Part shown: in pieces, positions 187-63,197 of the stretch
Layout: each line of letters opens with the position of its first letter
Position numbering within the stretch: the stretch's first letter is position 1
Assembly: GCF_046119375.1 (NCBI RefSeq)
Contig: NW_027363080.1
Span: 992,001 to 1,056,000, forward strand
DNA: 64,000 bases
Direction of reading: 5' to 3'
DNA from: Phyllobates terribilis
Taxonomy: Eukaryota
The notes under the pieces: model-generated
Databases searched by the model: none
What the model saw: the letters and a program-made list of their open reading frames with translations, nothing else
Told to the model about the DNA's origin: nothing
Position numbers and translations under genes: made by a program

Positions 187-202
187 CCTGTTCGTGACGC
201 CA
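187..202 (-). promoter_or_regulatory. Primer-binding site (tRNA-Ser(CGA)-like) of an LTR element whose internal region runs off the left window edge
   Basis: Plus strand CCTGTTCGTGACGCCA, 3 nt from the LTR end at 206. It matches the 3' end I recall for a vertebrate tRNA-Ser(CGA) (...GAATCCTGTTCGTGACG-CCA) and the PBS at 38317-38334. Confidence 0.8.
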
Positions 203-205
203 GGT

Positions 206-1010
206 TGACGCGCCCCCTGGGCCATGGGGTACTCGGTAGCCGGGCCGGTCGATGCTGGGGGAAGTCACAGTGGCAGTGACCCGGTCAATTAAAGGGAAAG
301 TAAAAGGTGAATAAAGTTTTTGGAGATAATGTTCGTGATGCCACCTGTGGTATGCGGCTATATGGGGCTGTCACTGCGGTGCAGATCCACTGGAGCTGGT
401 GGTGATGCAGCAGAGTTGGTTCACCTCTCCACAGGCAGAGCTAAGCTCCAGGGCAGTATATGTAGAATTGTGGAGGTAGATGTTGTTGGTGCGGTGTATT
501 GCAGGCGATGGCGCAGATAATGACCAGTCCACAGCTTAATGGCGGTTTCCTCTTATCTTTACTTGCGGTTTGTTAAGCTGACCGGGGCACGGGTACTAGC
601 TGGTAGTAGAGGTCCGGGCGGCCTGGAACCAAGTTGGGGATCCACTTCGCCAGGTGGAGTTGTTAGCCTTCCCTCTGCGCTATTCTCTTTATTCCTTGCT
701 GCTTGAAGCTATGCTGCGGCCCTCGTCCCTGAGTAAAGCGTCTTTTTCCTCACCTGTATGGCAGGCAGCTCAGGCCTTCCTTAAGTGTCGCTCCCACATG
801 GCGGTGCAGGGCCCTATGGTGCTGCTGTGCCGCCGGGCGCCTGGTCGTGCCAGGAGACCTGCAGTCTCCTGCCCTCCGGATTCAGCTGCTGGGCCTTCAG
901 TGCCCCACAACCACGGACTCCGGTGTCCGGTTCACTTGCGCTTCCCTCTGGGGCGAGCTTATTCACAGCTCCCTTCCCCAGGTCCTTCCTCGTTGTCCTC
1001 CTTTATACAG
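206..1010 (-). mobile_element. 5' LTR (incomplete) of a Gypsy-type element
   Basis: On the minus strand it ends ...GGGGGCGCGTCA like the other LTRs here and is followed by a PBS. Its 3' part is homologous to ~62930-63197. The right boundary is approximate, where Penelope sequence begins. Confidence 0.75.
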
Positions 1011-1423
1011 CCTACAAAATTGGAGTAATTTCCCAAATCAATTGTAAATCCATATTAATATATAAAAAACACTTTATTTCATAGATAAGATAAAATCACA
1101 TAACAAAGTTAAGAAAATAGATCTTACGAGGTAAGGATACACACAAGTGCAGAGCAGCAATAAACAAGTGGGTCCTAGGGGAACAACTGGCTAACAATAT
1201 TCAACTATAGCATATCATAGTCTATAGTACATGTGTACAGTAAAAAAGTAGCAAGAGGCACTGTATGGAGTTAAAATGGTCTCCCCAAGGTAGGTACCTC
1301 CACACAGAGAGAAGCAATCATAGAGAGTCACTGAAAGAAGTTGAACAGGCAGAAATAGCGATCACAAGTAGAACCAGAGTGCTCACCCATAAGGTACAAA
1401 AATTACCACTAAGCCACTCTGCA

Positions 1424-1460
1424 GCCCCGACGCGCGTTTCGCATGGCTTCTTCGGGGGGC
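1424..1460 (-). ncRNA. Minimal type-I hammerhead ribozyme motif (Penelope-associated)
   Basis: Minus strand GCCCC-CCGAAGA-A-GC-CAT-GC-GAAAC-GCGC-GTC-GGGGC: helix I GCCCC/GGGGC, palindromic helix III ACGCGCGT, GUC cleavage triplet, core with a U4C change. Confidence 0.7.
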
Positions 1461-2099
1461 GGTGGTTGTGGAACGAATAAGCACCATTTTATCTCCAGCA
1501 CAGACTGAATGCAGGTGACAGCGCTGATTACTGCAGCGCATGCGGAGTGACAGGACGTACCCCCGCACCGCGTCACATCCAGCCAGTTTCCCGACGGAAC
1601 CATGGGCAGGGACGTGCAACTAGTGACGTCACCATCCACAGCCCCGACATACGGAAGCCCGACGGGACGCGGCCGGAGCAGGACGGCACTGCGCATGCGC
1701 GGCTCAGCGGCAGCCATGACAAGTAAGGGATGAAGTGAGGGCACAGAGATACAACTAAATGTATGTAACAAAGCACAGTATACAAGAGAGGGAAAACAGT
1801 GAATCAATAAGAAAACGACTGTCACCCTAATCAGGAGAGACATCAGTACAGTATAAACATATATACAGATGCAATGTCAATACAGATACAATAATGTCGT
1901 TCCATTGAATCATTGAAATCTTGTATATGGTGATTGATTCCTGATTGATGAGATCGTTACATCCCTAGAGTGTCCAGTAGTTCCATGTGGTAGTCGAGGC
2001 ATATAAATGGTGATAACAAGATGCAAAGCTATGAAGGAAAAATTTCAACATAAACAAAAGAAGTTAAAATCCACATAAAAAACAAGGGAAAAGATATCT

Positions 2100-4430
2100 C
2101 TATAAGAATGATGAAAAACTGTTAATTTCGTTCAAACCACCAGGGGTCACCGTGTCCAGGATAGCAATCCAGCGGCACTCAAGCTGCGCCAAAGTACGCT
2201 TGTAGTTACCCCCTCTCGTGCCCAAATGTACCATGTCAATACCCCTGAATATAAGGGATGAGGGATCACAATTATGGCGCAGCTTGAAGTGCCGCGGGAT
2301 AGTCTTGAGTGTTGAGACGTCAGAGATATCCCACGCAGCAATCACGTCCCTGATATGTTCCCTAACACGCACCCGAAATTCACGGGAAGTAAGTCCCACA
2401 TAACTAAGATTACATGGACAGGTAGCCATATATACAATGTGTGTAGAGCTGCAAGAAATATAGTGCGTGATTTTAAATTCTTGGCCATTATTGGCGAAGA
2501 ATGATTTAGTACGAATAATATTTCTGCACGCCATACAAGATCCACATGGGTAACATCCCCATCTTTTTTTGTTGACCATCCCAAAGGGAGCAGGAGTGGG
2601 GGCAACATAATGACTCCTGACTAACGAGTCTCTCAGATTTTTACCCCTCCGGGCCGTCATTAATGGTCTATCAGGCAGAATCTTATTGAGTGTAGGTTCG
2701 GTTTTAAGAATTGACCAATGTTTATTGAGAATTCCTCGTATCGCAAGCCAATGTCTATTATATGTCGATATGAACCTAATGGGGGGATCCTTCTCTGGTA
2801 ACTTTTTGACGCTAGTTAGGAGATCAAGCGGAGTCCTCCTCGCCCGTCTATAGCCTCTTTTGATACTCCGTGCACTGTAACCTCGATCATGGAATCTCTG
2901 TTGGAGGTCCCGAGACTGAGCCTCAAACGCCGCATCAGTAGAACAAATGCGCTTTGCTCTGAGATACTGTCCCACTGGAATGGCCCGTATAGTAGACGGT
3001 ATATGCGCAGATGTTGCATGAAGTAATGCATTCACTGATGTCTTTTTGCGAAAAACATCAGTCAGCACTAGGCCATCCTGTTGGACAGTAATCCCAATAT
3101 CCAAAAAATCAATATGGGTCGAATCCCAAGTGTAAGTAAGTCTAATATTTAGGTCGTTTGAATTCAGAGAAGAGATAAAATCATGAAGCTCACTCTCGGG
3201 ACCTTGCCAAATGATAAAGATATCAGCTATATATCTATACCAGCACTGCGCATGGGTAGCGGCGCACGCGCCCCCCCCCGAAAACCTCCCTCTCCCAAAG
3301 ACCGAGAAAGAGGTTAGCGCAGGACGGCGCGCACGCCGCGCCCATCGCAGTGCCCCGCTTCTGAAGAAAAAATCTATCTTTAAATGTGAAGAAATTATGA
3401 GTCAATATGAACTCTAATAATTCCAGGATCAGTGCAGGGAGAGAGACATCTAGACTGCTAGTCTCGAGAAAGAACGCCGCGGCCCGTAGTCCATCCACAT
3501 GGTCAATACTAGTATATAATGACTCAACGTCAATGGCCACTAGAAGACTACCTGAGTCAAGGTATAAACCATCAACTTTCCTAAGGACGTCACCAGTGTC
3601 CCTGACATAGGAGGGCAGGGTCTCAACAAGTGGATGTAAATAATATTCGATGAATTTACAAATGGGATCACACAGCCCTCCAATGCCAGAGACAATGGGA
3701 CGCCCCGGTGGTTCCCTAAGATTCTTATGCACTTTCGGGAGTAAATAGAAAGTGGGAATAACTGGGCATTTGACACATAGGCCATCAAAGATTTTTTTTG
3801 GTATAATACCTTGTTCATAGGCCCGCTCAAGAATGTCAAAAAGATCCGCCCTGAAAGCTGTCAAGGGATTGTTAGGTAGAGTGATGTATGAAGACCGGTC
3901 CCTAAGTTGTCTAAAGGCTTCTTTCTCGTATTTCGCAACTGGCCAGATCACCACGTTCCCTCCCTTATCCGCAGGTTTGAATACTACATCCTTAAGCGAC
4001 TGTAGCTCGCTAAGTGCCCTGACCAACAGTGAGATTATCATGTTTAGGTCCCCCTGGCAATGTCCTCAGGTCATTACTAACGAGTTTGTTAAATATCTCT
4101 ACTTGTGGGCAGAGGAGAAAGGGAGGGAAAGTCGTAGATCTAGCCAGAACCGAACAGGGGAAATTACCTTTCTGGGTTGAGATATTTTCACTCTCCAATT
4201 CCTCTAGAGCTGACAGGGCCTCTTTTTCCATAGTGGTATTCAGGTGGATGTCCGACAAGGGTTTGGTGTGCAATTTCCGTAGAATCACCTTTCTAAGAAA
4301 TAATTGTAGATCCTTCAGTACTGTAAAGAAATTATAGTTATTAGTCGGCACAAACGTTAAACCCAAAGCAAGAACCTCTCATTGGTTATCGGACAAAGCA
4401 TGTGTAGAAAGGTTAATTACCTCAAGGTTA
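2100..4430 (-). pseudogene. Penelope RT-GIY-YIG polyprotein, frameshifted (ORF pieces 4010-4366, 3235-4041, 2100-3104)
   Basis: Motifs LGLTFVP, KPADKG, AIDVESLYTSI, GTAMGA, Cys-rich linker CYPCGSCMAC and GIY-YIG-like VYMATCPCNLSYVGLT...RVREH. The RT YIDD motif reads YIAD. One frameshift lies in the C9 run at 3271-3279. Confidence 0.9.
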
Positions 4431-9200: not shown

Positions 9201-11900
9201 TCAATCCACCGTAACATCTGCACCTCACTCACCCTCCACCAGTTTTTCCGGTTCACCATACTCCGCCCTCTCTGAGCACCTTAGCCAGCCCTCGGTCCTG
9301 CAGTTGTGGTCATGTAAAAGATTGTTTCATCCTATGCATGACAAAGCTAAGAGGTTGAACTCCACCATCTCCAAACTGTTAGCCATGGAAATGCTGCCTT
9401 TCCGCCTGGTAGATACAGACGGTTTCTGAAAACTGATGGCCGTCACAGTCTCCCAGTACCAGTTGCCCAGTCGCCATTACTTCTCTAAGAAAGCTGACAA
9501 CATAACCCGTTCCTTGTCTACATCTACATGTGACAGGGTGAATTTCACCACAGATACCTGGACGAGTAAACATTGCCAAGGGGGTTACATCTCGCTGACT
9601 GGGCACTGGGTGACTCTGGAGGCTGTGGAGACAGGCGGGAAGGGGCTGCTCCACAAATCTTGGAATCCCCAAGGCTTGTAGAAGAAACCTCTGTATTTCC
9701 CACTTTTTCCGCTGCTTCTGCGTCGTCCACCTCCTCTAGAGCCTCCACCTGCGCACTCAACCTCTGCCTTAACGAGACACGCGTTCCAAGGGTGCGGAGG
9801 GAATACACACCATCTCCGTACTGCGCAGTCAGGGCTCACTGTTATCAGGCAGTCTTCAAATTAATATACCTTGGAGATCGCAGTCATACAGGTTAAGAGT
9901 TGTGGGCAGCTCACCCGGCTCAGTTTGAGCAATGGCTGTCTACGCTGAACCTAGAGCCAGGGAAGGCCGTATGCGATAACGGTGCGAACCTGTTTGCCGC
10001 CCAAGGCCGAGGCAAGCTCACACAAGTGCCTTGCATGGCTCACGTCCTCAACCAGCGATTTCTCCTTTACTATCCTGGCCTGGATGAGCTGCTTCACAAA
10101 GTATAAAAGCTGTGTGCTCACTTCAGCCGTTCGCACCCCTCATGTCATTGACTTGCATCGATACAGAGGTCTTTGTCCCTGCCAGTTAACAGGTTGATCT
10201 TTGATGTGCTGATGTGGTGGAATTCCACTCTGTTCATGTTGCAGCGACTGTGCCAGCAGCAACGAGCTCTGACGCAGTATGTCATGATGTATAGCTTGGG
10301 GCAACGCAGTACGAATTTAGAGCATATCACGTTTGCGGAGTGGGAACAGATTAAGGACCTCTGCACCTTTCTGCACGGTTTGGAAATGGCTACTAAACTG
10401 GTTAGCGCTGACGATGCCATCATCAGCATCACTATTCCGGTCATATACATGCTGGAGCAGACTTTGAATAACCTGTGGCAGGAGGCGGTGGCCCCAGAAG
10501 AAGAGTAGGATGCGGAAGGGATACCAATGTCTCGAATTTCCAGACTGTCGTCACACAGGCGGATGCCAAGTGATGGTGGATTACAGCAATCGAGGGGGTT
10601 TTTTGATACCAGGCAAACTGTAAGTGAAGGTGCAAGAGCTGAGGAACTAATGGAGGAGGAAGAGGTGATGGGCAAGTAGCTGTCAGAGGATGAAGAGGAT
10701 AATCATCCCCTCTCGTTTGAAGGTGGTTGGCAGGAGGGGATGGAGGAAACAAACATCAGTGTTACACAACCCACAATACAGCCTGGCTTTGGACCTCCTG
10801 GAAGAGCCAGACATATGAGTGCCTTCTTGATGCAACATGATCCCTGTATAGTTAGGATTTGAAATGATACTGACTACTGGGTTGCCACTCTGTTAGATCC
10901 CCGTTATAAGAGTCAATTTTGCCAGATGCTTCCCGCCCTGGAAAGGGCCCCGCTTATGTTGGAGTATCGAAACAAGCTTTTAAGCAACCTTAATAAAGGT
11001 TTTCCCCAAGGTAACAGTGAGGCACACAGTGTGCATCGCAGCTGTAGTTTTTCAACCTCCTGCACGTCAGTTTGTCAACACCAAAACATTAGCAGCAGCA
11101 GCAGAGTAAGTGGCAGAAACAATTTTTGGGAGTCCTTTCACACATTTTTTGCTCCAGCTCATGCACCAGCACAACAGAGTACAAGTCTGACACGTGGTGA
11201 ACGACTGGAGAGGATGGTGCAGGAGTATCTATATCTCAATATCAATACCATCAGGGAGGGCTTGGACCCTTTTCCATTTTGGTCTTCAAAAATGGATGAA
11301 TGGCCTGAGCTCGCCTCTCACGCCTTGGAGGTCTTATCATGCCCGGCAGCCAGTGTTCTCTCTGAACATGTCTTCAGCGCTGCTGGTAGTGTCTTGATGG
11401 ATAAGAGCACCCGGCTGTCCCCTGAATGTGTAGACCACCTAACTTTCATCAAGATGAACAAGTTATGAATCTCCAAGGACTTTTGCACCCCAATTGCAGA
11501 CTGTACAGAGTCGGCGATGTTGTCGTTTTGAGTGTGCTGCATTGATCTCTTGAAATTGCAGCCTGGGATATGGCTTCTGTGTTTGCCCTTGCTGCTGCTG
11601 CAGGTTTTAGGCCCTAATTTTGGGAAATGTGGAGAATTCTGATTGTGTCTCCATTGATTGGGTTGGCTGTAGTAGGACAGGTTTGGGTCTGCGTTAAACT
11701 ACTTGTAGTCTGATGACATTGATGCCACTTCGGTGGTGTTAGGCCCTCATTTAGGGCAATGTAAACACTCCTGGTTAGGTCTCCATCTCCTGGGTTGGCT
11801 GTACTGGAACATGTGTGGGTCTTATTTACACTATTTCTACTGTAGTGAAATTGATGAGACATTGCAAGTGTCTGCCACTAATTTTTTGAAATGTGGAGAA
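6271..11900 (+). mobile_element. hAT-a DNA transposon, left part (5' arm, transposase, start of 3' repeat array)
   Basis: TIR TAGTGTTGAGC at 6271, ~260-bp subterminal duplication at 7140-7560, transposase remnants. The 3' array resumes at 30178-31155 and 39396-39560. No right TIR found. Confidence 0.8.
7946..11510 (+). pseudogene. hAT transposase (BED finger, DDE core, hATC dimerisation domain), many stops and frameshifts
   Basis: Motifs LLAMEMLPFRLVDTDGF, FTTDTW, VCDNGANL, CMAHVLN, WWNSTLFML, LDPRYK, LSCPAASVLSEHVFSAAG. Confidence 0.92.
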
Positions 11901-18100: not shown

Positions 18101-18435
18101 CACTCGGCATGGTGGGAGGAAGGAGCATCAGGGTGAGGAGGAGTATGCGGTCGAGACTCACGGCTACTAAGACTTGACCGTGTAGAAGACAGACCAGAGG
18201 TGGTGGTGCCCAGGTGACTTGAAGTATTATCTGCTATCCAATTAATAACCTGTTCACACTGATCAATTCGCAATAGTGGTGTTGTGTGCTTCCCTAGTAA
18301 TTCAGTAAAGAACTGGGAGCGAGAAGATGTGGCTGTTGGTTGTGGCACATTTTCACCTTGGCCACGGCCCCGTCCTCTGCACGCACCATCACCAGAACGT
18401 CCAGTTCCACGTCCCTTGCCACGCGCCTTGCCCAT
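15121..18435 (-). pseudogene. hAT-b transposase, several frameshifts
   Basis: Start MGKARGKGRG, BED finger (CTTC...RHMSAKH), LTTDTW, VCDNGRNL, CLAHVLNL, PTCWNSTLHML, and a C-terminal hATC region. Confidence 0.92.
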
Positions 18436-20350: not shown

Positions 20351-20466
20351 ACCCAGCCAATAGTTTTGGCCTAATACCATAGTTTGGCCACTCAGCTCTG
20401 CTTGGTTACCATCCATTGTTTTTTTGTGCAAACAACTCCAGAGTTGTGAATTAGTTAACCACCAAA

Positions 20467-23400: not shown

Positions 23401-24169
23401 ATGATTGTTACCTCGCCACCAACACAACAGGGACTTGGTGCTCCTGGATGCGCAACACACATGAGTGCCTTCTTGCTGCACTACCTGCAACATGACCCTC
23501 GAATTGTGAGAATTAGAAATAATCCTGACTACTGGGTTGCCACACTGTTAGATCCCCCGGTACAAAAGTAAATTTGCAGAAATTATTCCTGCCATAGAAA
23601 GGGATGCACGCATGCAGGAGTATCAGCAGAGACTGTTGCAGAATCTTACATGTGCTTTTCCACAAAATACCAGTGGTGCACGTAGTGAATCTCACAGTTC
23701 CAACTTGCCAACCGTGGGACCGTCAAGTGTTCAGCACTCAAACCGTAACAGAACCACAGTATCTGCTGGTAACATCAATTTTGCGGAATCATTTCACCAC
23801 TTTTTTAGCCCATCCTTTGCAAGGCCACAGGAGACAAGAAGTCTGACACATAGTCAACGCCTAGAGACGATGGTACAGGAGTATCTCCAAGTAAACATTG
23901 AAGCCACGACTGTGTCACTGAACCCTTGCTCTTTTTGGGCTTCCAATCTGGATAAATGGCCGGAGCTAGCCACTTACGCCTTGGAGATCTTGTCATGCCC
24001 CGCAGCCAGCGTTCTGTCTGAACGTGTGTTCAGCGCTGCTGGTGGTGTGCTGACAGATAAGCGCACGCGGCTCTCCACTGATAATGTAGACAGACTCACG
24101 TTCATAAAGATGAACAAATCATGGATCCGAAACGACTTTTCTACCCCTGTGTCATCCTGGGGAGAGTAA
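20467..24169 (+). CDS. hAT-c transposase, ~1233 aa if the single +1 C at 23554-23558 is removed (ORFs 20467-23571 and 23612-24169)
   Basis: BED finger (CNIC...RHMDMKH), FTTDTW, VCDNAANL, CMAHVLNL, PTRWNSTLHML, LDP[R]YK, CPAASVLSERVFSAAG. All three putative DDE residues are present. Confidence 0.93.
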
Positions 24170-25940: not shown

Positions 25941-27765
25941 TCTGTATGGAGTTGTTCAATAAAGGGCCCAAAATTAAGATAACATAGATGGGAGAGGTCT
26001 CTATGAATAGGAATTCCTAAGTATTTGATACCCTGTGAGGGCCAGGCCAAGGGAAAGTTGGACTGGATGGAATCCTATATGGATTTGGGGAGGGAGACAT
26101 CGAGGGCCTCAGACTTCGCTGCATTGATTTTAAAATTTTACCATGTAACAAAGTGATCTATTTCAGCCATAACAGCATGGATGGATATATGTGATTGAGT
26201 GATATATACTAGGACATCATCAGCAAATAGAGAGCACTTGTACTCGGTGCCTCCCACCTCAATCCACCTAATATTGGGGTTATGGCGAATTGATGAGAGC
26301 AGGTGCTCCGTCACTAGGATGTATAAGAGAGGGGACAGAGGACATCACTGCCTTGTCCCATTGGTGATTGTGAAAGGTGATGAAAATGTTCTGACGCACC
26401 CCCTGGGCCTTGGGACACCCGGAGCCGGACCCTTTTTGGTGGATGCTGGTGGTTGTAGTCTTCGTGGCGGCGACCCAGTTCCGTGGCTCAGGGCGGTCAA
26501 ACCAGTGGCGGAACTATTTATGTGGTTTTCATGTTTAAATGTCCGACTACGCCACCCGTGGATTGCGGTCAGAGTGAACCGCCGCTACAGGGCAGACCAC
26601 TGAGGCTGGTGTTGTGGGTGCAGCAGAGCGTAGCATAACTCCCCACGGGAGGAGTATAGCCTCAGGGCAGTGTATGCGGAGGATGGGGGTGATGGTGCAG
26701 GGCAGCAGCAGTAACGACACGGAGTCAGTGATGCAGTTCAGGGCCTTTACTCACAGTTCTTATTATCCAGACCACGTCTGCAGGTAACGGCTGCCCACGT
26801 CGTACTGTGCTCACCAGGTGAGGGGCTCAGACAACTCCCAGATAACTTTGGAGCACTTCACAGGACCCCCTTTGTGTGTCCTTTGTCTGGCCTTTCTTAC
26901 CAACACTTCTGTCCGGCTGCCTCGGGCCTCCTCTTGGTAAACTTGGCGCCAGTTTCCCTGACCCTATGTGGTGCCTTCCTAGCGGGTGTAGCGAGGGGCT
27001 GCGCCACATAAAATGTCAGAGCCTCCGGTTTCTAGCTGAGGGTCGTTTCCTGCCTCCACTAGTTCGGGGACCGGTCTCCCCCTTTGGCCTGACCCCTCCA
27101 CGCAGGTGGATTCGGGCGTGCGGTGGCGACTCGCCCGTCCGCACCCCTGGGATCCCTTCATTCCTCGTTCCTGGAGCCTTCTCCGCTCCTCTTCCTTCCT
27201 TCTCCCTCTTCCAGGCCTGGGCCTCTGTTACTAGGCCCGCCTCCGGAGCAGAGCTCATGCAGAGCCCCTGCTCCCTGCCACTTCTGCTCAGACTTCTCTG
27301 CACTGAACTAAGATGGTGCCCACCTTTTATACTCCCTTCTCAATGCACCCAGGAACTGCTTCCTCCCTGCTCCTGCACTACAGGGTTCCCCTTCCTCAGT
27401 GTTCCCTCCCCCCACTCCAGCCAGGGACAGGGACTGTCGTGCCCATCTCAGGGGCATATTGGTCGCCCTGCCCCACGGCAATGTGGTGTAATGCATGCAG
27501 GTGTCGGGTCCTGATCCACACTCCATCCTTACCTGAGAGTGAGATATCACACCTCTGGGTGAGGTGCAATACGTCTGTAGCAACCGAGCCCTCAGGGTGC
27601 TACAGTTCCATTTATCTTCAGCCTAGGTGACGTATTGCGATACAGGGCCGTGATTTTGGCTATAAAAGGGTCCCCTAGACCCCTACCCCAAGCTTTTTAA
27701 GAGAATCATATATGGCGTGCCAGGAGACTCTATGGAATGCTTTCTCAGCATCCAACGAGAGTATC
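25941..27765 (-). pseudogene. L1-clade LINE reverse-transcriptase fragment (~610 bp), split by the solo LTR at 26392-27604
   Basis: Minus strand reads SLDAEKAFHRVSW...KINGT|FSSPF...GTRQ*CPLSPLLY...LFADD...IKYLGI, and is continuous across the LTR TSD. Confidence 0.85.
26392..27604 (-). mobile_element. Solo LTR, 1213 bp
   Basis: Minus strand TGTAGC...GCGTCA. TSD GTTC at 26388-26391 and 27605-27608. Same family as 48265-49473. Confidence 0.92.
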
Positions 27766-27869: not shown

Positions 27870-28142
27870 CTGTAGTTTAGACACTTAATTTTTTCAAAGG
27901 AAATGCTTCGGGACCATGGGATACTTAGTGAAGAGCATCAGGAGGCACCCCAAGGCATAGGGGCTGGGACTGGCAGTAGGATGCCTTGCGGTGGACAGCC
28001 GAGCTCGATCCTTATAAAAGCTTTTTAACTGCAGCAGCTTTAGTGGACGCTACTGGAGCTGGAATTACCGCGGCTGCTGGCATGAGACTTGCCCTCCAAT
28101 AGATCCTTGTAAATGGATTTAAAGTGTATTCATTCAAATTAG
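27870..28142 (-). pseudogene. Degenerate 18S rRNA fragment (helix 18 region and adjacent expansion segment)
   Basis: Exact CCAGCAGCCGCGGTAATTCCAGCTCCA (28054-28080, minus). The flanks align by eye with vertebrate 18S (e.g. GCTTTTTAACTGCAGCA, AATTTTTTCAAAG, AAGAGCATC). Confidence 0.88.
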
Positions 28143-28604
28143 AGAGACAATTTAAATTAAAAAGCTTAGAGCTGCCTCCACCACAGGGGGGCTCGCTCGA
28201 CCCACCAGCGGACAGGCACCAGTATTGGGAGAGGGGGGCTGGCCGTCAGGGTTCACCGCGGCTCTGGCACAAACCCGGCGACACGGAGGTGGCACGGGCA
28301 GGAGCGGACTGGCCGTGTCGGCTTCTCACTTTTTGGATTTTAGAAGGGCATGACATGCCTATATCTGTGTCTCCCCCTCCTTTTACTCCTCCACCTCTTT
28401 TATTTTCGCATGACTATATGTACTTGTCACTTTTCCATGTGTTAGTTATGTCTTCTGAGCAGTTTGTCAGCTTTTGGACACCTTTGAAGGTGTTTTCTAT
28501 GTGTTTCTATGTGTTTTTGTTTGCCTGCCATTGGTTTTAACGGTGTTCGAAGGTGTTCGACGAACCGAACCGAACTCGAACACTACGGGGGTGGCTCAAC
28601 ACTA

Positions 28605-31155: not shown

Positions 31156-32257
31156 TGACACGCCCAGGGTGTTGAGGATGACTCGGCGCCCGGGCCTTGT
31201 TGTTAGATTTGGGGGATGTCGCGGTGGCCGGCTCCCGGGCCTGTACCCTGGGGTCACTCTTTAAAAGGCAAGGAAAAGTGGGGGAAAGTTATATGGGAAA
31301 GGGGAAATTGTTTGTGACGCCACCTGTGGTGTCTGGTGAGGATCACCAGCGCTGCTACAGTCCTCTGAGGCCGGTGATCAGGCAGCTTAGTTGGTGCGGC
31401 TCCCCACAGGTGGAGCAGAGCCTCAGGGCAGCGTAGGAGAAGGGATGCAGGACAGAGGGGACCCAGCCGGGTCGGAGGAAGAATAGGCACACTCACAACA
31501 GTTCACTTCAGTACCTTTACTGGTGGTGTTTCAGGCACGATCCAGGGCACTGTAGGGTGAAGGGTGCATATCGGGACTCTACCCAGTGAGCGGGCGTGGA
31601 GCCTCCTGATTCTTGCCTTTTCCTGGTAAGTTTATGACCTGCCTGGAGCTAGGCCTAACTTGGTCTCTGTCTTGCACCAGCTGACCTGGTGGTAGGGCCT
31701 TCTGTTGGAGATCACACTCCCTGGTTTCTTGGGCCTCAGTGACTCCTGACCCTGGTATAACGGTCAGCTTTTGGTGTTCCTGGGACATATAGTTCGCCAG
31801 GGGTTCCGGTAGTTTCTGCTGGGCCTAAGGAATCCCTGCAGACGCGGACCCGGTGTCCGATATATATTCTTGGGGTGAGCTGGCTAAGCTCCTCTGCCCC
31901 CTATGTAGCTCGCTACTCCACTTGCCTTCGGCCGCTCGGGGCCCTCACTAGGCTTCACACTGGCAGTAGGCCTTGCTACTCTTCACCGCTCTTACGGCGT
32001 CGGCACGCCTTAGGCTCACTAACCTGAGCTCCCTGACTCTGGGCTAGACTGACTTTCTCACAGACTTCACTCTCTGTGGACTCAAGACTGACTAACTGCC
32101 TAGCTCCACCTTCCCTTTTTATATCCCTATCCGGGCTCCCTCTGGTGGTCTGAGGTGGAAGGTGGAGGTGTGTGAATGCAATGAGGGCCTCTTGTGGAGG
32201 AATCCGTCCATGCGCCCCTCTAGGATCTGTGGCACCAATGCACAGCAGGGCGCCACA
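31156..32257 (-). repeat. 3' LTR, 1102 bp, preceded by PPT TAGGGGGGAA
   Basis: Minus strand TGTGGCG...GTGTCA. Plus strand TTCCCCCCTA at 32258-32267. Confidence 0.93.
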
Positions 32258-32834
32258 TTCCCCCCTAGCAAAGCTCAGTACTCCCGGACTGAAGTACTTT
32301 TTTTATGACAACAATAACGATAACTCTTCCCTTTATGGGAGGCACTTTACTTAAACGTTACATATAAAACATTATAAATAATAAATAGATATGTACAGTT
32401 CAATAAGCAACCCCAGAATTCAAGTCTCTTCCGGTGAGGTTCCCGACAGGATGTCCATCTCACAGGGTAGAGTACTTGGTAGCTTGAGGGACCTGTCCAA
32501 AGCAAACCCTCCACGTAGGCCCTGGGGTCGCTGCAGGGCATGACAATCCTGAGTTGTACCTCCGCTTGTGCCACACCAGACAGGTTTTTTTTCTGAGGTC
32601 ACCTAAAGGGGCACTCCAGTGCAATTATTTACAGCAACAGTTTTTGGGCTGCACATAGTCCTCAGCCACAAAGTTCTTTATGTACCCTGACGGGTAACTA
32701 GAGATAACAAGGGAAGTGTCCATTTCACTTAAATTGTCCATTATAAGGCAAAACACAAGCTGATAAGTACATATACATGAAAATACACAATATGATACCC
32801 CAAGGGCAATTATTTACACTGTCAGTTTCCTTCT

Positions 32835-35800
32835 TTACTCTCTGTATCTGACAGGGGTCTGACCTCGTGTGCTACGCGTCGACCTACGTGGTAGTGGGAT
32901 GCGTGAGGCACTAGTATTTGCACTACCTCCCATTCTGTCAGTTCTAATTGTTGGGGAGCTGCAGGGTTGCCTTAACCTCTCTACAGGACTGGCAAGTATA
33001 CCATTGGCTGGGCCTTCTTGCTCTGCTCCAACCGGGGATCCTTCTTCTGGGGATTCTTCTTGAGCAGGCTCTTCTGAAGCACTTACAGGCTCTCCTTGCT
33101 GTGGAGGGTCTTCTGGCTGTTGAAAGAAGTGGATCACAGGGATTATTACTGCTCCTCCTAGTTGAGGCCAATCTGCCGGGAAATCTCCTAAGTCAGTATG
33201 GAGTATTGCTTCTTTAGGTTCCTCCGGTACGGTGAGAGGCACTTCTTCTTGGGGCTTTAGCAGGTCTGGACACAACTTCAGATGGTCTCTAGATACCGTT
33301 GCAGTCGTTCTTCCTCCGTCTCTACTAATTAGGCATGTCTTCCTATTATCAAATCTTGAATTTAACACAGTGTAGGGTTCTCTCTCCCACTGGTCATCAA
33401 GTTTGTGGTTTCTCCTTTTCCTTTTTAACACCACTTCTCCTGGTGTGAAGGGTTCTGCGGGCGCACTTTTATTGTAGTGGGCTTCCTGCTTGTCCCTTAC
33501 CCGAGTGAGACTGTCTTCAACACAGGCCTGTACTCTCCTGTACTGCTCCTGTCTAGTCATGTCCCAGTCCTCAGTAGACATATCTGCTTCTGGTTCTACT
33601 ACACCAAGCTCCAGATCCATGGGCAACTTCCCGGGTCCTGTTCGCATGAGATAAGCTGGAGTACAATTGGTGGAACTCACAGGTATGTGGTTGTACAGAT
33701 CTACCATGTCTGGTAGTAGGTCTGGCCACTGATTTCTCTCCTCTAGTGGTAAGGTCTTCAGCAGGTCGATGATGATGTTATTCATCTTTTCACAGAGACC
33801 GTTGGTTTGGGGGTGGTACACCCGTACAGATGGCAGAACTCCTTGAACAATTCGGCTTCAAAGATTGGGCCTTGATCCGACAGCACCTGCTCCGGGTATC
33901 CATGGGGCCTGCAGAAGTACGCCTGAAACGTCTTCGCCGCAGTTTCTGCCGTCAGATCCTTGACGGGGTCGACCACCAGGAACCGAGAGTAGTGATCCAC
34001 CATGGTCAGGGCATAAGAATATCCTGACCTGCTGGGTGACAGCTTGACATGATTCAGGGCCACAATCTCCAAAGGTCGAGTTGTCTTGATGGGTTGCAGG
34101 GGTGCCTTCTGGCTGCTGTAGTCTCTTCTTCTGAGGCTACAGGGTACACAATTCCGGCACCACCTCTCGATGGAACTGCACATTCCTACCCAATAAAACC
34201 GACACTTCAGCAGGGTTTCTAGCTTCTTCCAGCCAAAGTGCCCCGCCTGATCGTGGTAGGCCTCCAACACCATCTGGATGTCTGTCTTGGGCACCACTAT
34301 CTGCCATATCATCTCATGGGTTTTGGAGTTGACGTACCTCCGGCACAGCTTCTCTCTATAGATGAACAGCCGGCTCTTCTCCCTCCACAGCTGCTTGGCT
34401 TGGAGAGACGCTTCCTTCTCCAGGGAGGAACTTTCCTGGGTTATCAGTTCTTTGATACGGCTGACAACCGGGTCGCTGTCCTGGGTCTCCTTCCAGCTGT
34501 GGTGAGGCAGGGGATTTAATGTCTTACCGCGAGGCCTCCTGGAGGCTCGTTGCTCGTGGACCATCCCATTCTGATGAAAGGCAGGTAGTTCAATCTCCTC
34601 CAGGTCATCCACTTCTTCTTCAGTGTCCGACTGGTGAGGCATCCTGGACAGGGCATCGGCGTTGGCGTTCTTGCAGCCCGCCCGGTACTTAATAGTGAAT
34701 TGGTAGTTTGACAGCCGAGCCATCCACCGCTGCTCCATGGCTCCTAACTTGGCTGTTTCTAGATGAGTCAAGGGGTTGTCATCAGTGAAGGCAGTGAATT
34801 TACTGGAGGCCTGGTAGTGCTTGAACCGCTCGGTGATGGCCCAGACCAACTTGAAGCTGCTATAGTTCTCCGGGTTCCTCTCGGTCGGGCGGAGCTTCCT
34901 GCTTGCATAGGTAATCACCCTCTCTCGGCCTCTCTCTACTTCTGACTCAGTACAGCTCCTAATCCTTCGTTGCTGGCATCAGTGTACAGCAGGAACGGTT
35001 GGCTGTAGTCAGGGTAGGCTAGGATCTCTTCGCCGGTCAGGATCTCCTTCATCACATTAAAGGATTCAGCCTGCTCCTTACCCCACTGGAACGGGGGATT
35101 TCTGCCTCTGGGGGACTGTCCTACTAGGAGGTCTTGCAGAGGTGCCGCTTTCTTGGTATAGTCCTTCACAAACCTCCGGTAGTACCCAACTAGTCCCAGG
35201 AACTGACGTACCTCCTTGAGGCTCTTCGGCTCCGGCCATTTCTGGATGGCAGTGACCTTCTATGGGTCTGGTGCTAGTCCCTCAGGACTAACGATGTGCC
35301 CCAGGTATTGTACCTTTCGCTTGAGCAGGTGGCACTTTGAGGGCTTCAGCTTCATCCCATACCGGGACAGCGACTCAAATACCTCCGCCAGGTGCTTCAA
35401 GTGGTCCTCATACGTTTTGGAGTACACGATTACATCATCCAGGTATAGTAGTACAGTCTCGAAGTTGCGGTGTCCCAGGCAGCACTCCATCAATCTCTGA
35501 AACGTTCCGGGGGCGTTGCAGACTCCAAACAGCATACTATTGAACTCCCAGAGTCCCATCGGGGTGGTGAAGGCCGTCTTCTCCCGAACCTCCTCAGCAA
35601 CAGCTACTTGCCAGTACCCGCTAGTGAGGTCAAGGGTGGAGAAGTAATTTGCAGACTTCAAGGCAGCCAGTGATTCCTCTATACGTGGTAAAGGGTATGC
35701 ATCTTTATGTGTAATGTGATTTACTTGTCTGTAATCTACACACATTCTCATGCTTCCGTCCTTTTTCCTGACTAGAACTAGGGGAGCTGCCCAGGGACTA

Positions 35801-36830
35801 CAACTATCCCTTACTACCCCTGCCTTCTTCATGTCGTGCAACATCTCCTTCGCCTTCTGGTAGTGTGCTGGTGGTATAGGCCTGTAACGTTCTTTGATGG
35901 GTGGATGGTCACCTGTGGGGATATGGTTTCAACCCCCTTAATCCTCCCAAAGTCAAGTGGGTGCTTATTGAATACCTGCTCGTATTCCTGAACCACCCGG
36001 TGTACACCCTGCTTCTGATGGGCAGGAGTGGTGTCTGTCCCAACATGGAGCTGTTGACACCAATTCTCCACCTGGGTTCCCGGGTCATTATCCTCCACTT
36101 CGTCTGGTGAGGTTAAGGACTCCGCCTTGTGTATGGAGTTGTTATTTACTGTGTACAGTTTGGCAACAGTGGCGTAGCGTGGTAATCTAACCTCGTCCTC
36201 CCCATAGTTTATTAGGCGTATGAGCACCCTCCCATTGCGTACATCCACTACCCCTCTGGCAGTCAAGAGTGTAGGCCTATGCTCCGAGGTAAGGGGCTCT
36301 ACTACCGCCTGGTAGCTCCGTCCTTTGAGACCTATTGCTGCTCTACACCAAATCAGCATTTCACTCATCGGGGGAATCACAATGGGTACCGGGTCTGTCA
36401 CCCGTACATTACCAATTTCACCGCCTGTTAGCTTTACCTGTTGCTGGTACATAAGGGCTCGGATCTCTTTCTGGAGCGCCCTTCTCTGCCCTGGTCTGGC
36501 AGTGTCAGCTATCTGTTGGAGCAAGAACAACACTTCTCCCAAACAGTTACTAACAACATTTATGCCAAGTACCATATACAAGTCTGTATCATCAGGATTA
36601 GTCTCTACTACAATTAGTCCCTGGTCCTTCAGTTCCACTCTTCCCACCTTTACTGCCACACCCTTAACCCCGACTAGGTTAAGAGGGAGGCCGTTTGAGG
36701 CATAGACGAAAAGATTTGGATCTGGTGGGTGAAGTTCGTCTATGAACCAGAACCTTTTGTAGAGGACATCAGGCATGATGGTTACCTGAGATCCTGTGTC
36801 CAGCAGAGCCGGGTGTCGCGATGCTGTCCA
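32835..36830 (-). pseudogene. Gypsy pol: protease, RT, RNase H, integrase (frameshifted)
   Basis: DTGSQVT, WAAPLVLVRKKDG...CVDYR, LDLTSGYWQ, YLDD, LYTDAS, HDQAGH...C..C, YHPQTNGLCE. Confidence 0.93.
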
Positions 36831-36896
36831 GCACGATGGACAGGAAAGGTCTTCCTCCCACGAACCTGCGGTACCAGTTTGATGGGCCTGGGGGGT

Positions 36897-37957
36897 CTAC
36901 TCCTGGGTGTCGGCCCTCGGCCCCAGGGTTTGTTCGTTTAAAGGACAGCTCTGGACGGTGTGACCTGTCTTGTGGCATCGGTGGCAGACAGGGTCCCTCG
37001 GTGGGCGGTGTTGGTCGCTAGTCCTCCCAGGGGGTGGCGTTGTCCTCCTCCTCCTTCTCATCCAGGGGACATCCTCAGGGCTGTCGGCTAGAAGGATCCT
37101 TCCTTCCTCCTCGGGCTCCGTCTGCAGCTGCAGGGCACTCAGCACAGTGGTCAGGGTTTTGCTCAACTGACGCACTTCAGAGCGCAGGCTGTCCAGCTCA
37201 CTAGGGGATGTTGCTTGCACCTTGGCTTCAGCAGCTACCGGGGAAAAGGTGGACGCCGCAGGCACTGGGGTGGCCCCACCCTGGTAACATTGGATAGCAG
37301 TTGTTTCCAGGGGCTGCAGTCCTTTTATAGCCATGTCCTTAAGGGTGTCAAAGGTGGCATCTGGATGATCTAGGGAGCACCAACGCACAGTCCTGCTCTC
37401 CTCTTGGGACCTCAGTCCCCGGATAAACTGTTCCTTCAGCATTTTATTTTCATCATTGATGCTGGTTGGACTAACCTGTTTCAGAGCTCACAGGGTCCCT
37501 TGCAAACGCCAGGCATAGTCCCGAACACTGTCCTCCGGTTGCTGAGAGCAGTTGTAGAACCTCATCCGGAGGTCTGTCTCAGTACGATTCTCAAAGACAG
37601 TCTGTAACTTTTTAAAGATTGCGGATACTGACTCCTGGTCTGTGGCCGACCAGGTTTCTACTTCTCACTCCGCAGCACCAGTCAATTGTCCCAATACAAC
37701 AGCGGCTCTTTGCTTGCCTGTCATAGAGTACATATCCAGTATACCACATATTTTCCTTTTGAATCCAGAAGGGTATCTGGTTTACCGCTGTACTGGGGGA
37801 GCCACTTCGCTCCAGGGATGTACGGTAGGGCCATGGGTATGACAGGGGTTACTGGCCCTGCTGGTGGAGCGTCTGCTTTGGCCTGCTCGGCGCCGAGCGC
37901 AGGTTGATTATCAGAGCCAGTAACCGGTACTCCGGTGTTGTGCTGTTCTTCGGACAT
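36897..37957 (-). pseudogene. Gypsy gag (PNMA-like N-terminus, CCHC zinc knuckle), disrupted
   Basis: MALPYIPGAKWLPQYSG, LKEQFIRGL, CHRCHKTGHTVQSC. Confidence 0.8.
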
Positions 37958-38316
37958 TCTGGCGCCCCCCTAGCGAACCGTAGCCTACCTTCTTGTCTTC
38001 CGGTAGGCCGCAGCTCCGCAGGTAACGGTCTTCTTTCAGGACCTTGCGTCGCTTGCGTCCTACGTCAGAGCGCTCATCGAGGCTCCTTCCAGGACCTGGC
38101 ACTTCCTGGTTTGACGTCGAGGCGTGGGGCGTGTCCGGAGCTTCGCGCGCTTCAGCAGGTACGCCTCTCAGTTTCCCGCGGTTACGCCCTTCTTCCCGCT
38201 CGGCGGCACAACAATGGCGGCAATCTTCGCCACAGTTAAATACACAGTTTTTGATTAAAGGCGCATAGTACCCGGTGGCAACGGGCACAACACTCTGTCA
38301 TTGCAGCAGGCACGGA

Positions 38317-38334
38317 ATCCTGTTCGTGACGCCA
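38317..38334 (-). promoter_or_regulatory. PBS complementary to tRNA-Ser(CGA)
   Basis: Minus strand TGGCGTCACGAACAGGAT (extends to ...TC, 20 nt), 8 nt from the 5' LTR. Confidence 0.85.
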
Positions 38335-38342
38335 GGAAGAGA

Positions 38343-39395
38343 TGACGCGCCCAGAGTGTTGGGGACGACTCGGCGCCCGGGCCTAGTTATTAGATTTGGG
38401 GGATGTCGCGGAAATGTGGGGGAAAATTATATGGGAAAGGGGAAATTGTTCGTGACGCCACCCGTGGTGTCTGGTGAGGATCACCAGCGCTGCTACAGTC
38501 CTCTGAGGCCGGTGATCAAGCAGCTTAGGTGGTGCGGCTCCCCACAGGTGGAGCAGGGCCTCAGGGCAGCGTAGGAGAAGGGATGCAGGACAGAGGGGAC
38601 CCAGCCGGGTCGGAGGAAGAATAGGCACACTCACAACAGTTCACTTCAGTACCTTTACTGGTGGTGTTTCAGGCACGATCCACGGCACTGTAGGGTGACG
38701 GGTGCATATCGGGACTCTCCCCAGTGAGCGGGTGTGGGGCCTCCTGCTTCTTGCCTTTTCCTGGCAAGTTTATGACCTGCCTGGAGCTAGGCCTAACTTG
38801 GTCTCTGTCTTGCACCAGCTGACCTGGTGGTAGGGCCTTCTGTTGGAGATCACACTCCCTGGTTTCTTGGGCCTCAGTGACTCCTGACCCTGGTATAACG
38901 GTCAGCTTTTGGTGTTCCTGGGACATATAGTTCACCAGGGGTTCCGGTAGTTTCTGCTGGGCCTAAGGAATCCCTGCAGACGTGGATCCGGTGTCCGGTA
39001 TATGGTCTTGGGGTGAGCTGGCTAAGCTCCTCTGCCCCCTATGTAGCTCGCTACTCCACTTGCCTTCAGCCGCTCGGGGCCCTCATTAGGCTTCACACTG
39101 GCAGTAGGCCTCGCTACTCTTCACCGCTCTTACGGCGTCGGCACGCCTTAGGCTCACTAACCTGAGCTCCCAGAGTCTGGGCTGGACTGACTTTCTCACA
39201 GACTTCACTTTCTGTGGACTCTAGACTGACTAAATACCTAGCTCCACCTTCCCTTTTTATATCCCTATCCGGGGTCCCTCTGGTGGTCTGAGGTGGAAGG
39301 TGGAGGTGTGTGAATGCTATGAGGGCCTCTTGTGGAAGAATCCGTCCATGCACCCCTCTAGGATCTGTGGCACCAATGCGCAGCAGGGCGCCACA
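38343..39395 (-). repeat. 5' LTR, 1053 bp (~50-bp deletion relative to the 3' LTR)
   Basis: Collinear with 31156-32257, roughly 95% identical by eye. Confidence 0.93.
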
Positions 39396-40817: not shown

Positions 40818-41863
40818 TGTGGCACCCCAGGGGTCTGGTTGCCACGGTGATAGAAATATCACGTCTGGGAGCAAGTGGGAGGTTCCCTGGTCAGGAGCCC
40901 TTGAACATGCAACACCTCCTGTCCCAGACCAGATAGGGGAGGAACCTGCCCTATATAAACTGGATCTGGGGCGGGGTTAGGAAGTGAAGCTCCAGAGAGA
41001 CCAGAGACTGGAGGCTGAGACAGAGCTGAGTCTAGTTGAGAGTGAAGTTCCAGACACAGGGAAAGCAACAGCTAGGAGCTCTATAGGAGCAGGAGCTGAG
41101 TGCCAGGGACTTGAAGCAGATATAGCTCGTCCTGTCTGAAGACACTACGACCGGACAACGGAGTCCGAGGCTGTGAGGATCTCTACGTCCAGCAGCAGAA
41201 ACCAGCCGGCAGGGGATTCCAGGTCCTCTGGCCATAGAAGCCCGGAGGCTCAGTCACGAGCAAGGGACCAGCACCGCCATCGAGGAGCGGAGGCTAACAG
41301 AAGGCCCCAAGTCACCAGCCATACGGGTGAGCACCACACGGTACACTCAGGGACGTGGGCTACTTCCACTCGCTTACAGCAAGGTAGCCAGGAAGAGTGC
41401 AGACAGACGGGGAGGCCTACAACTCCACCTGGCCAGGGGAACTCCTGTTTGTTCACAGACTGACCCGGCCTCTTATGCAAGCCAGTACTCCCGGGAGGGT
41501 CTGCCTTATCATCATCAGTAAAGACCCTGAACTGCACTGCAAAGACTCTAAGTCTTTCCTGCTTCACCCGTGCACCATCACTCCCATCATCCACACTCAC
41601 TGCCCTGAGGCTATACTCCTCCCGTGGGGAGTTGTCCCATCCTCTGCTGCGCACACAACACCAGCCTCAGCGGTCTGCCACGCAGCGGCGGTACACCCTG
41701 ACCGCAATCCACGGGTGGCGTAGTCGGACATTAACCTAAAACATATAAAATACTGCCACTGGTTTGACCACCCTGAGCCACGGGACCGGGTCGCCGCCAC
41801 GGAGACTACAACCCCCAGAGACCCGGCTCCGGGTAACCCACACACGGCCCAAGGGGCGCGTCA
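40818..41863 (+). mobile_element. Solo LTR, 1046 bp
   Basis: TGTGGCAC...GGGGCGCGTCA termini. TSD TAAG at 40814-40817 and 41864-41867. TATATAAA near 40950. Confidence 0.92.
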
Positions 41864-48264: not shown

Positions 48265-49473
48265 TGACGCGCCCCCTGGGCCAGTGTTGTTGGGGATACC
48301 CGGAGCCGGATCAGATGGGGGTTGTAGTCTCCGAGTGGCTGTGACCCGGTCCGTGCCCAGGGTGTCAAGCTCAGTGTGTGGCAGTCCTTATGATGTTACT
48401 AGATGTTCTTTTGTGTCGACTACGCCACCCGTTGAATTGCGGTCAATACGGCCGCCGCTGCATCAGGGTCCGCTGAGGCTGGTGGTGTATGTGCAGCTTA
48501 GGTAGTATAACCCCCAACGGGAGGGGTATAGCCTCAGGGGGTCAGTTGCAGAGGATGGGGGTTGTGGTGGTGCAGCGGGGATGGAAATGAGACTCAGAGT
48601 CGGGCTGTGCAGTTCAGGGTTTGTTTACTTACTGCAGTTGTTCTGGTCACTCCGGCCTTAAGTGACCACCCGAGCCGTGCTGCGTCCACCAGGTCCTGGA
48701 CTCGGCCAACCCCCAGGTGATTCTGGAGCGTGGTCCTGAGCTCCCTTTCTGTCCTGTCCTCTTCTCTGGCCTTCCCCACCAGGGATCCACCTATGTCCGG
48801 CTCCCTCGGGCCTCTTGGTGGTAAACCCTTGTCTCTGGGTTCCCTGACCCTATTCCTGGTCTGCCTTCCGGGTGGATTTAGTGGGTGGTCGTGGCAGATC
48901 CTGCCCATGACCTCCGGTTCCTGGCTAAGGTGTGCTGTAGCCTCTGCCAGCTTGGGATCCGGTACCCTGTTGCCAACTCTTCACCCTCTGGTCTAATTTG
49001 GGCTCTTGGAGTTCCTTCTTTCTCCCCCTCTGGGTCTTTCTTTCTCCTCTCTCTCTCTCTTGGCCTTGGAGCTGCTCTCCTCCTCTGCTCTCTTCCTCTG
49101 CTCTGCTCTGACAAAAGACTGACAGACTGACCCTGATCTAAGATGGTTCCCACCTTATATACTCCCTCTATGTGTGAGCTCAGGTGACCAGCACCCAATG
49201 AGCTCCTAGCTTTACCCAGGCTGCTCCCCCTATCTGCCCCTACACTACTGGGATGTTCCACCCCCCTCCCACTCCAGCCAGGAACAGACACTGTCGTACC
49301 TGCACATTTCTCTAGTGGGAGTACCGTCGGTCTGTTCCTCGGAAATGGGATGTGTGTAGTGCATGCAGCTAACTGAGCTCAGTTCCACACTCCATCCTTA
49401 CCCGGGAGTGGAATACCACACCTCTGGCTGAGGTGCAATACCCCTGTAGCAGCCGAATCCTCAGGGTGCTACA
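48265..49473 (-). mobile_element. Solo LTR, 1209 bp, inserted in the chromovirus integrase
   Basis: TSD ATCT at 48261-48264 and 49474-49477. Removing it restores NKVPRHLPAGHLLPLPVP. Confidence 0.95.
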
Positions 49474-62293: not shown

Positions 62294-63197
62294 TGTAGCA
62301 TCGGAATCTCTGCCCCATGCCAGGCAGGAGGAGGGCCCAGTGAGAAAGGCCCAGGACAGACGGAAGAGAGAGAGGAGCAGGAGAAAGGCTCCAGGAAAGT
62401 AGAAAGGATCCTAGGGGCGCGGGCAGTGCGGATGCCACCCGTGCGCCCGAGTCTGCAGAGGAGCGGAAGGATCAGGTCGCAGAGAGGGGACCGGCCCCTA
62501 AACTAGCAGAGTTCTTTAAGCCTCAACTAGATAACCGGAGGGTGCAGCATTTCAGATGCAGCAGCCAACAGCCACATCTAGCTCACCAAAAAGGTGGCCA
62601 TAGAGGACCCAGGGGACAGAGAAGATGTCGCCCGACAAGGTCTGTGGTCACTGGCTTGGGACACTGGGTGTGAGGTGCAGGGAGATGGTCAGAAGGAACA
62701 CACAGAAGGGGGTCCTGTTATGTACTCCGGAGGTACCTGAGGGTTTGCTGAACCCCTCCCTGAGTAAGCACAGGACGGCGTGGGAAGTTACCCTGGCCTG
62801 GTAACATGGAGTCTAAAACCATGAGTAAAAACTCTGAAGACTGCATCCCACTGTCTATGCGAATTATTACTGCGCCATCATCCCCTGCACTATACTGCAC
62901 AGCAGCATCTAATAAAATCACCACTTCCTGCCCTGGAGCTAAGCTCTACCTGTGGAGAGCCAAACCAACTCTGCTGCATTATCAACAGCTCCAGAGGATC
63001 TGCTCTGCAGCGGTGGCTCCCTTTAGCCGCATACCACAGGTGGCATCACGAGCATTATATAAAACCTATAAATCCCCTGCAAATATCCCCTTTTATTGAC
63101 CGCCCTGGGTCATGGACCGGGTCACCGCCACTGTGACATCTCCCCTAGCAATGACCGGCCCGGCTACCGAGTACCCCATGGCCCAGGGGGCTCGTCA
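62294..63197 (+). mobile_element. Mosaic LTR-derived block
   Basis: The first 33 bp match the chromovirus LTR start (50587). ~62327-62510 matches the 26392-family LTR. The 3' part matches the 206-family LTR and ends ...CTCGTCA. No TSD. Confidence 0.65.

Follow-up and report, generated by a model that had tools for sequence, protein, structure and literature searches.

Capture, opening and activation of a tRNA primer are understood for few models only, namely yeast, fly and retroviral ones. In Ty3, the 3' part of the PBS pairs with other regions of the tRNA. As described in the relevant parts of the respective accounts, this Ty3 segment is found at the opposite RNA end and priming depends on it, and a tRNA-linked dimerisation or cyclisation has been proposed (PMC11381356); Drosophila gypsy has a second, 11-nt tRNA-binding site, dispensable for cDNA synthesis, which lies near the RNA 3' end and pairs with the anticodon and T stems, one tRNA bridging both ends (PMC1635307); Ty1 needs a 5'-leader pseudoknot for reverse transcription, near a 10-nt acceptor-stem PBS, its single acceptor site, which is used for priming (PMC3681743). 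In HIV, the PAS within U5 pairs with the T-stem 5' strand of the primer tRNA, outside the PBS, and tracks primer identity, while the part of that account which deals with extended pairing describes no duplicate NCCA site (PMC3185550). In the T-box antiterminator, UGGN pairs with NCCA of the tRNA, forming a duplex whose stacking on a neighbouring helix stabilises the fold (PMC8704770, in the part on this element).

The lineage analysed here comes from the 10.6 Gb genome of the frog Phyllobates terribilis. Like Drosophila gypsy it is a Gypsy element with a second, apparently non-essential tRNA site, and like Ty3 it has extra tRNA-pairing segments. Its two sites take the same acceptor 3' strand, and the second one appears to lie within U5, a placement read from an AGTAAA hexamer, rather than addressing another tRNA region from the RNA 3' end, as in gypsy or in a bipartite PBS. 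Compared with Ty1, a predicted, local five-helix double pseudoknot in U5 is flush with a second, almost never-priming site. A candidate anti-motif, X', is similar to the PAS, but fits the acceptor 5' strand. The likeness to the T-box is one of geometry only, a UGGN-type sequence lying flush with a helix, as for coaxial stacking; the frog element is a eukaryotic retroelement without homology to T-boxes, specifier loop or stem I, and its pairing would run through the acceptor stem. Extra tRNA-binding elements in retroelement leaders are already known; the accounts cited above on gypsy, Ty3, Ty1 and HIV describe no duplicate acceptor site in U5 flush to a double pseudoknot, and searches of open-access text listed no description of the element.

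The window is the whole stretch of DNA analysed, 64,000 nt of contig NW_027363080.1. It contains a decayed full-length Gypsy (Metaviridae-type) LTR retrotransposon (31156..39395, minus strand, TSD TTCA) with a broken pol at about 32835-36896, in the order PR-RT-RH-INT. The CGA-type 5' LTR (38343..39395) has a distal U5 partly deleted in this copy only, and is followed, 8 nt past the LTR end, by the true 18-nt PBS for tRNA-Ser(CGA) (38317..38334); the 3' LTR (31156..32257) lies behind a purine tract. LTRs of the lineage are about 1.05-1.2 kb long, start with TG and end with GTCA. The domain order, the TG...CA LTRs with TSD, the PBS and the purine tract identify a Gypsy/Ty3 element. The best matches of its RT are anuran proteins, up to 86%, followed by teleost Gypsy elements at about 50-65%; some of the matching proteins carry PF14893, and in a tree the RT groups with vertebrate Gypsy elements. 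Most matches of a DNA search with the U5 region were segmental duplicates of the element in the window. This element recurs at least 11 times at 100% identity and megabase spacing (C37, C297, C320, C430), a sign of extensive amplification, segmental or in tandem.

Seven LTR copies in the window carry the inner motif, and the sequence-only reading placed these, as well as both outer PBS sites, correctly. In the full-length element, the inner site for tRNA-Ser(CGA) is a 14-nt match at 38447..38460 (minus strand), adjoined by the predicted double pseudoknot, helices A-E, at 38461..38566; in the 3' LTR, on the same strand, the inner site occupies 31309-31322, the pseudoknot 31323-31428 and the anti-motif about 31218-31224. 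A further minus-strand copy, at the beginning of the window, has an inner CGA-type site with one CpG-type change (330..343), the predicted pseudoknot at 344..453, a CGA-type X' at 264..270, complementary to tRNA G1-G7 and to site +5 to +10, and a true PBS with a 16-nt match to tRNA-Ser(CGA) (187..202), 3 nt past the LTR end at 206. Three solo LTRs are of AGA type. The one at 26392..27604 (minus strand, TSD GAAC) has its inner site at 26543-26554, pseudoknot at 26555-26667 and X' at about 26455-26461; the one at 40818..41863 (plus strand, TSD TAAG) has them at 41716-41727, 41603-41715 and about 41803-41809; the one at 48265..49473 (minus strand, TSD AGAT), where an empty-site joint was seen, has them at 48417-48427, 48428-48539 and about 48324-48330. 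The last copy is the U5 of a CGA-type LTR (62931..63197, plus strand, LTR end at 63197), with pseudoknot at 62931-63040, inner site at 63041-63054 and X' at about 63131-63137. The TSDs of the element and of the three solo LTRs define five of the seven LTR ends; for the copies at 343 and 63041, a search for the LTR start gave nothing.

In all seven copies the motif is immediately preceded by CCACAGG, CCACGGG or CAACGGG, and an AGTAAA, a poly(A)-signal-like hexamer (38654..38659, minus strand, in the 5' LTR of the element), lies about 195-220 nt upstream of it. This conserved hexamer, the sole marker of the placement, suggests that the pseudoknot and inner site sit in U5, and would so be present only at the RNA 5' end. 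The location within the LTR was also borne out: counted from the LTR end, the first base of the motif is at 118-167 nt in the window and at 118-184 nt over 143 copies. The spacing between inner and outer site is 120-190 nt, both falling within the 5' leader.

The match to host tRNA-Ser 3' ends, which had been proposed, was confirmed with ARAGORN, by which L045 holds a tRNA-Ser(CGA) gene and L055-L060 hold tRNA-Ser(AGA) genes, all from the host genome: the two inner motif types are complementary to the 3' ends of these genes, and the motif has, in this respect, the complementarity expected of a PBS. Exact inner motifs were counted genome-wide, with 8,263 matches for the CGA type and 243,250 for the AGA type against 0 for reversed controls, which excludes chance. 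A pattern for the upstream hairpin gave 256,681 matches genome-wide, and none when reversed. In 28 arbitrarily placed 10-kb stretches, the motif followed 15 of the 18 hairpin matches; of the other three, one ran off the stretch edge and two were weak matches with two mismatches. The U5 of one Gypsy lineage with at least 250,000 LTR copies carries the inner motif. LTRs of this lineage are often nested in one another (L081, L085, L305), and one such insertion sits immediately after the inner motif.

Conservation was evaluated starting from the 143 copies, which form 55 clusters with a mean identity of 57%; 52 cluster representatives, each a single natural copy, were scored. The motif is more conserved than the adjacent U5, with a score of 0.98 for positions +1 to +6, the six positions common to both tRNAs, against 0.53 for the linker behind it, 0.73 for the distal U5 and 0.78 for the pseudoknot. 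In AGA families there is a drop from 0.93 at +11 to 0.52 at +12; +11 pairs with tRNA nucleotide 66, at the foot of the acceptor stem, and conservation ends exactly there. The 11 conserved nt correspond to the complement of CCA, of the discriminator base and of the 7 nt of the acceptor strand. The motif of 12-14 nt described originally is present, with the qualification that the selected core is 11 nt long and the match is 10-14 nt according to family, often extending to 13-14 nt in CGA families. From +1 to +11 the cognate tRNA is matched in 94-100% of the typed copies (155/159), with the exception of the CGA-type CpG positions, where the match is 84% and 75%; at +15 and +16 the tRNA is matched in only 2-10% of the 155 typed copies, a set which is partly motif-dependent, as T+1 was fixed by the search pattern at 30 loci and some stretches were selected near known matches. 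The inner motif is real and under selection.

In a predicted double pseudoknot of ~110 nt, which ends flush at the motif, CCACAGG provides the 3' arm of helix B (38461-38467, minus strand, adjoining the inner site of the 5' LTR). Hairpin C, of 5 bp, holds the 5' arm of helix B in its 8-nt loop, about 85 nt upstream (38537-38554, minus strand), and a loop of one base remains, which is the usual geometry of H-type pseudoknots. In the model, helix A crosses B, D crosses A, and hairpin E is found just ahead of the 3' arm of B. In the alignment 96.6% of 1,716 cells are paired, against at most 55% in slid controls; helix covariation is 0.328 versus 0.162 for shuffled data, 16 of 33 pairs show changes at both positions, and all five helices covary. 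Several of the top mutual-information pairs are canonical helix pairs, other high scorers reflecting shared ancestry or alignment shifts. On a tree built without the pseudoknot columns, up to 10 independent pair switches are counted per column. Some changes in helix B are CpG-type and attributable to decay, while others, G-C/U-A and G-C/C-G among them, are not; a decisive non-CpG switch in helix B is seen once. With nested folding in RNAalifold, A and E alone are recovered and most of the motif stays unpaired, and the joint fold of all five predicted helices is hypothetical. The distal U5, as at 206-300 (minus strand) in the window, has another GC-rich structured domain, closing onto the LTR end, which may be a pseudoknot too, CACGG/CCGTG being crossed by CCGGG/CCCGG.

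The sense strand is favoured by the G.U pairs, 44 against 17 antisense equivalents. An antisense reading, in which a tRNA-mimic end is freed by an HDV-like cut, was rejected because of this bias and of the helix order of the predicted fold, which is presumably not that of HDV, hammerhead or pistol. Retroelements often carry ribozymes, and the fold could be an unrecognised self-cleaving ribozyme, or a nuclease-blocking fold, with the motif marking a processed RNA end. Its compact, ribozyme-like size and its strong covariation suit this explanation, which nevertheless has little probability: besides the helix order just mentioned, an Rfam scan of the window gave no match over the fold, with no T-box or ribozyme model there, only about one unpaired nucleotide of the fold is invariant, and one distant relative (L318) retains a simple stem only. 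The same scan yielded two items away from the fold: a sub-threshold type I hammerhead at 1423-1461 (minus strand, 22 bits, E 0.83), probably due to chance, and an 18S rRNA fragment at 28047-28167 (minus strand, 71.6 bits).

The resemblance of CCACAGG to an LTR end followed by 2 nt and a PBS had been noted, but LTRs do not end there; the pseudoknot, X' and the distant relatives had escaped the sequence-only reading. For one family pattern, 10,679 copies continue from CCACA into GGT and 9 do not; the exceptions comprise 7 small internal deletions, a small duplication, and a 3' LTR truncated inside a CA-rich satellite and lacking a TSD, so that none of 10,688 copies ends at this point with a TSD. 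In the single two-LTR exception which was checked, the deletion is confined to one LTR. Unlike a canonical PBS, the inner motif is neither placed just outside the LTR, defining its end, nor recopied from the tRNA at each cycle, as only four copies genome-wide have an inner site of 17 nt or more. For annotation, 'CA-GG-TGG' within an LTR can mimic an LTR/PBS border. Exact 18-nt outer CGA PBS sequences have, for comparison, 7,487 matches, a few counted twice.

The rare extended copies are informative about how tRNA sequence may reach the inner position. In L151, the 5' LTR has an inner site overwritten with tRNA sequence at exactly +13 to +18, while the 3' LTR is normal and full length. In L042, the distal U5 is duplicated, with an LTR end and an 18-nt PBS in the inner position. 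In L152-L154, an 18-nt site is joined directly to the leader; the 3' LTR of L152 is full length, as in L151, and those of L153 and L154 were searched for and not found. These structures show a route for tRNA-templated sequence into the inner position, relevant to origin and co-switching and not to routine priming. Dual priming, in which the inner site would prime a short strong-stop DNA for plus-strand transfer, could account for the rewriting of L151 in the 5' LTR only and for the junctions of L152-L154. It is nonetheless improbable and, in a routine form, not supported, since extended copies are 4 among more than 250,000 and TSD-flanked ends at the inner CA are absent from the 10,688 copies; L151 can also be explained by a mis-transfer duplication of the L042 type followed by collapse, and L152-L154 by deletion between short repeats.

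The same route bears on the origin of the site by absorption of an ancestral LTR end and PBS. As a history this is possible, given the duplication in L042; it leaves the maintenance of the site unexplained, and CCACAGG has turned out to be a covarying helix arm. That the site is just a neutral relic of such an event, occasionally refreshed by mis-transfer, is the least probable of the explanations considered and is largely refuted by its near-invariance across clusters of 57% identity, by the sharp boundary of conservation and by the scarcity of fresh 17-nt copies, along with the helix covariation. At the outer PBS, many 5' LTRs among L031-L053 hold tRNA sequence beyond 18 nt, up to about 50 nt and into the anticodon arm, which suggests read-through of the normal plus-strand stop; a tRNA-end pattern has 233 matches, in which read-through copies and real tRNA genes are mixed. 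The spacer between the terminal CA of the LTR and the PBS is pyrimidine-rich and variable, from 3 to 9 nt (203-205 and 38335-38342 in the window, and other copies). It is typically 2 nt in retroviruses and Ty3, and the longer, variable spacer implies flexible end processing.

The type of the inner motif follows that of the outer PBS, a covariation which the sequence-only reading had proposed to test: all 48 copies with both sites, from 26 clusters, are concordant, several of these copies being duplicates of the window's element. At 29 loci picked by a CGA outer PBS alone, the inner site is CGA in 26, AGA in none, and mutated or partly deleted in 3. Genome-wide, a search whose gap window covers 36 of 40 concordant pairs found two discordant copies, one for each combination, one of them visibly a chimera. 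A tree of the upstream U5 needs two switches of tRNA type, also when pseudoknot columns are removed; a single AGA-type origin is not rejected without these columns (p-AU 0.23 and 0.32), so that independent co-switches number one or two in the genome, plus one in the distant pair of elements described below.

The anti-motif X' is a 6-7-mer located downstream of the inner site, about 62-91 nt ahead of the LTR end, which reads like tRNA nucleotides 66-72. Its pairing, by energy, is stronger with G1-G7 of its own tRNA in 18 of 20 AGA and 31 of 34 CGA clusters (49/54), a performance matched by 10 of 300 shuffled heptamers. The AGA form was reached twice, by substitutions keeping G.U pairs in one clade and by a TAC insertion in the other; exceptions are a mismatch in one CGA subgroup and a pairing of only 5 bp in one AGA subgroup. 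In HIV-1, according to the part of the account on this step, the 5' strand of the tRNA, once displaced, folds back onto the T stem, which has opened (PMC8704770). With the 11-nt site of the frog element the T stem would stay shut, and an outside partner such as X' would be needed. As read from its sequence, X' could equally pair with either PBS copy.

The reading favoured for the inner motif, at about an even chance, is that of a non-priming docking site for the acceptor arm of tRNA-Ser, stacked on the pseudoknot. A second tRNA-Ser likely docks there without priming, because the predicted pseudoknot helix ends flush against the site. The unpaired NCCA of the tRNA would take TGGC as a toehold, after which the acceptor 3' strand would exchange onto the inner site and X' would catch the displaced 5' strand (G1-G7); without bound tRNA, X' would pair with the inner site. 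The new duplex would stack on helix B, with the 3'-OH buried against the knot, which the reverse transcriptase would have to unwind, so that minus strands would start almost only at the 18-nt outer PBS. The payoff would likely be primer capture or hand-over, with the leader also put in order for reverse transcription or for dimer packaging. Rough energies are about -19 kcal/mol for the 11-nt site duplex versus about -8.6 for the acceptor stem.

When 25 copies were folded singly, the inner motif paired mostly internally, either with the linker or with a motif of the leader behind the PBS, and no single partner prevailed; in AGA families a nearby partial complement is also a predicted partner. 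The partner of the inner motif need not, for this reason, be a tRNA. In the main rival explanation, the inner copy is an intramolecular decoy or switch. It would never bind tRNA, but pair with PBS-blocking sequences (X', the GCCAC ahead of X', or the leader motif after the PBS), and must, for this, mirror the PBS. The inner-to-leader or linker pairing predicted in most of the 25 copies agrees with it, as do the variation of both X' and leader motif with tRNA type and the GACTRCCAC partial complement found directly after the linker in many AGA families; the ability of X' to pair with either PBS copy, added to these further predicted internal partners, keeps the model alive. It is, all the same, rather unlikely: the internal partners are bulged, wobbly and family-variable, yet T+1, T+6, +10 and +11 are near-invariant and tRNA-exact; one AGA subclade retains a CGA-like leader motif (L039); and a distant relative (L311) keeps 11 of 11 tRNA-matching bases with a partner of at most 5-6 bp for the TGGCG half.

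A role towards 3' tRNA fragments had also been put forward. As a target of Argonaute-guided tRF-3, the site is a weak candidate, because the seed-pairing positions (site +12 to +17 or beyond), set by the rule given in the part of PMC7472051 on such targets, are not matched. Alternatively, the site could be a sponge for fragments otherwise blocking priming at the PBS, as an 18-nt tRF3a blocks reverse transcription at the PBS of mouse ERVs (PMC7472051, in the part on these elements); the inner site would pair with the 3' two-thirds of the fragment and avoid the seed. This is very improbable, given that a shorter site would compete poorly with the 18-nt PBS (-19 to -27 vs -34 to -36 kcal/mol), and that the flush helix and X' would be left unexplained. 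Distinctly doubtful, too, is a T-box-like eukaryotic device, arisen or kept in two distant Gypsy clades, in which the leader double pseudoknot would read, by toehold exchange, the free NCCA of uncharged tRNA-Ser, and direct the RNA either to translation or to packaging or reverse transcription; if true, it would be present in about 250,000 LTRs, and solo LTRs could lend tRNA sensing to host transcripts.

The lineage offers a natural experiment, in that a duplicate acceptor-arm site, an anti-motif and a true PBS change jointly with the primer tRNA, beside a double pseudoknot with strong covariation. Primer capture and non-priming docking are testable on short natural RNAs of two isoacceptor classes. 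The module is found in one of the most expanded LTR lineages of the genome, and may bear on genome expansion.

In order to look for the arrangement elsewhere, about 165 related RT loci were collected from public contigs and 34 PBS-like candidates, some of them spurious, were examined. A copy of the inner site was found upstream in two of the 34. In L318, a 12-nt inner site lies 63 nt upstream, with an 8-bp helix and a nested hairpin flush at -1. In L311, an 11-nt inner site lies 73 nt upstream and tracks a third acceptor variant; the contig begins 14 nt before the site, and no X'-like partner was found in its U5. The two form a separate Gypsy clade of their own, with an RT 51-55% identical to that of the frog lineage. 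The inner site is absent from closer relatives, the fish-like L308 and L166 of the host genome, and the arrangement is accordingly either old and often lost, or evolved twice. The module is also absent from the Ser-primed L044, L166 and L299 of the host genome and from 6 of 8 distant Ser-primed elements. The frog pseudoknot profile had no match in 80 metagenome loci; pattern matches in two sets of viral contigs (46 and 7) are chance-like, the 46 having no match to the pseudoknot profile and the six inspected of the 7 showing no LTR context. Many bacterial MAG contigs (L430-L509) encode a Gypsy RT, likely from contamination by eukaryotic hosts.

The rest of the window contains traces of other mobile elements, classified by eye. 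Decayed ORFs with the look of hAT-type transposases are located at 10863-11468, 15685-18233 and 20455-24169, and ORFs with RT and GIY-YIG-like parts, of Penelope-type appearance, at 2100-4065 and 59958-61607 (minus strand).
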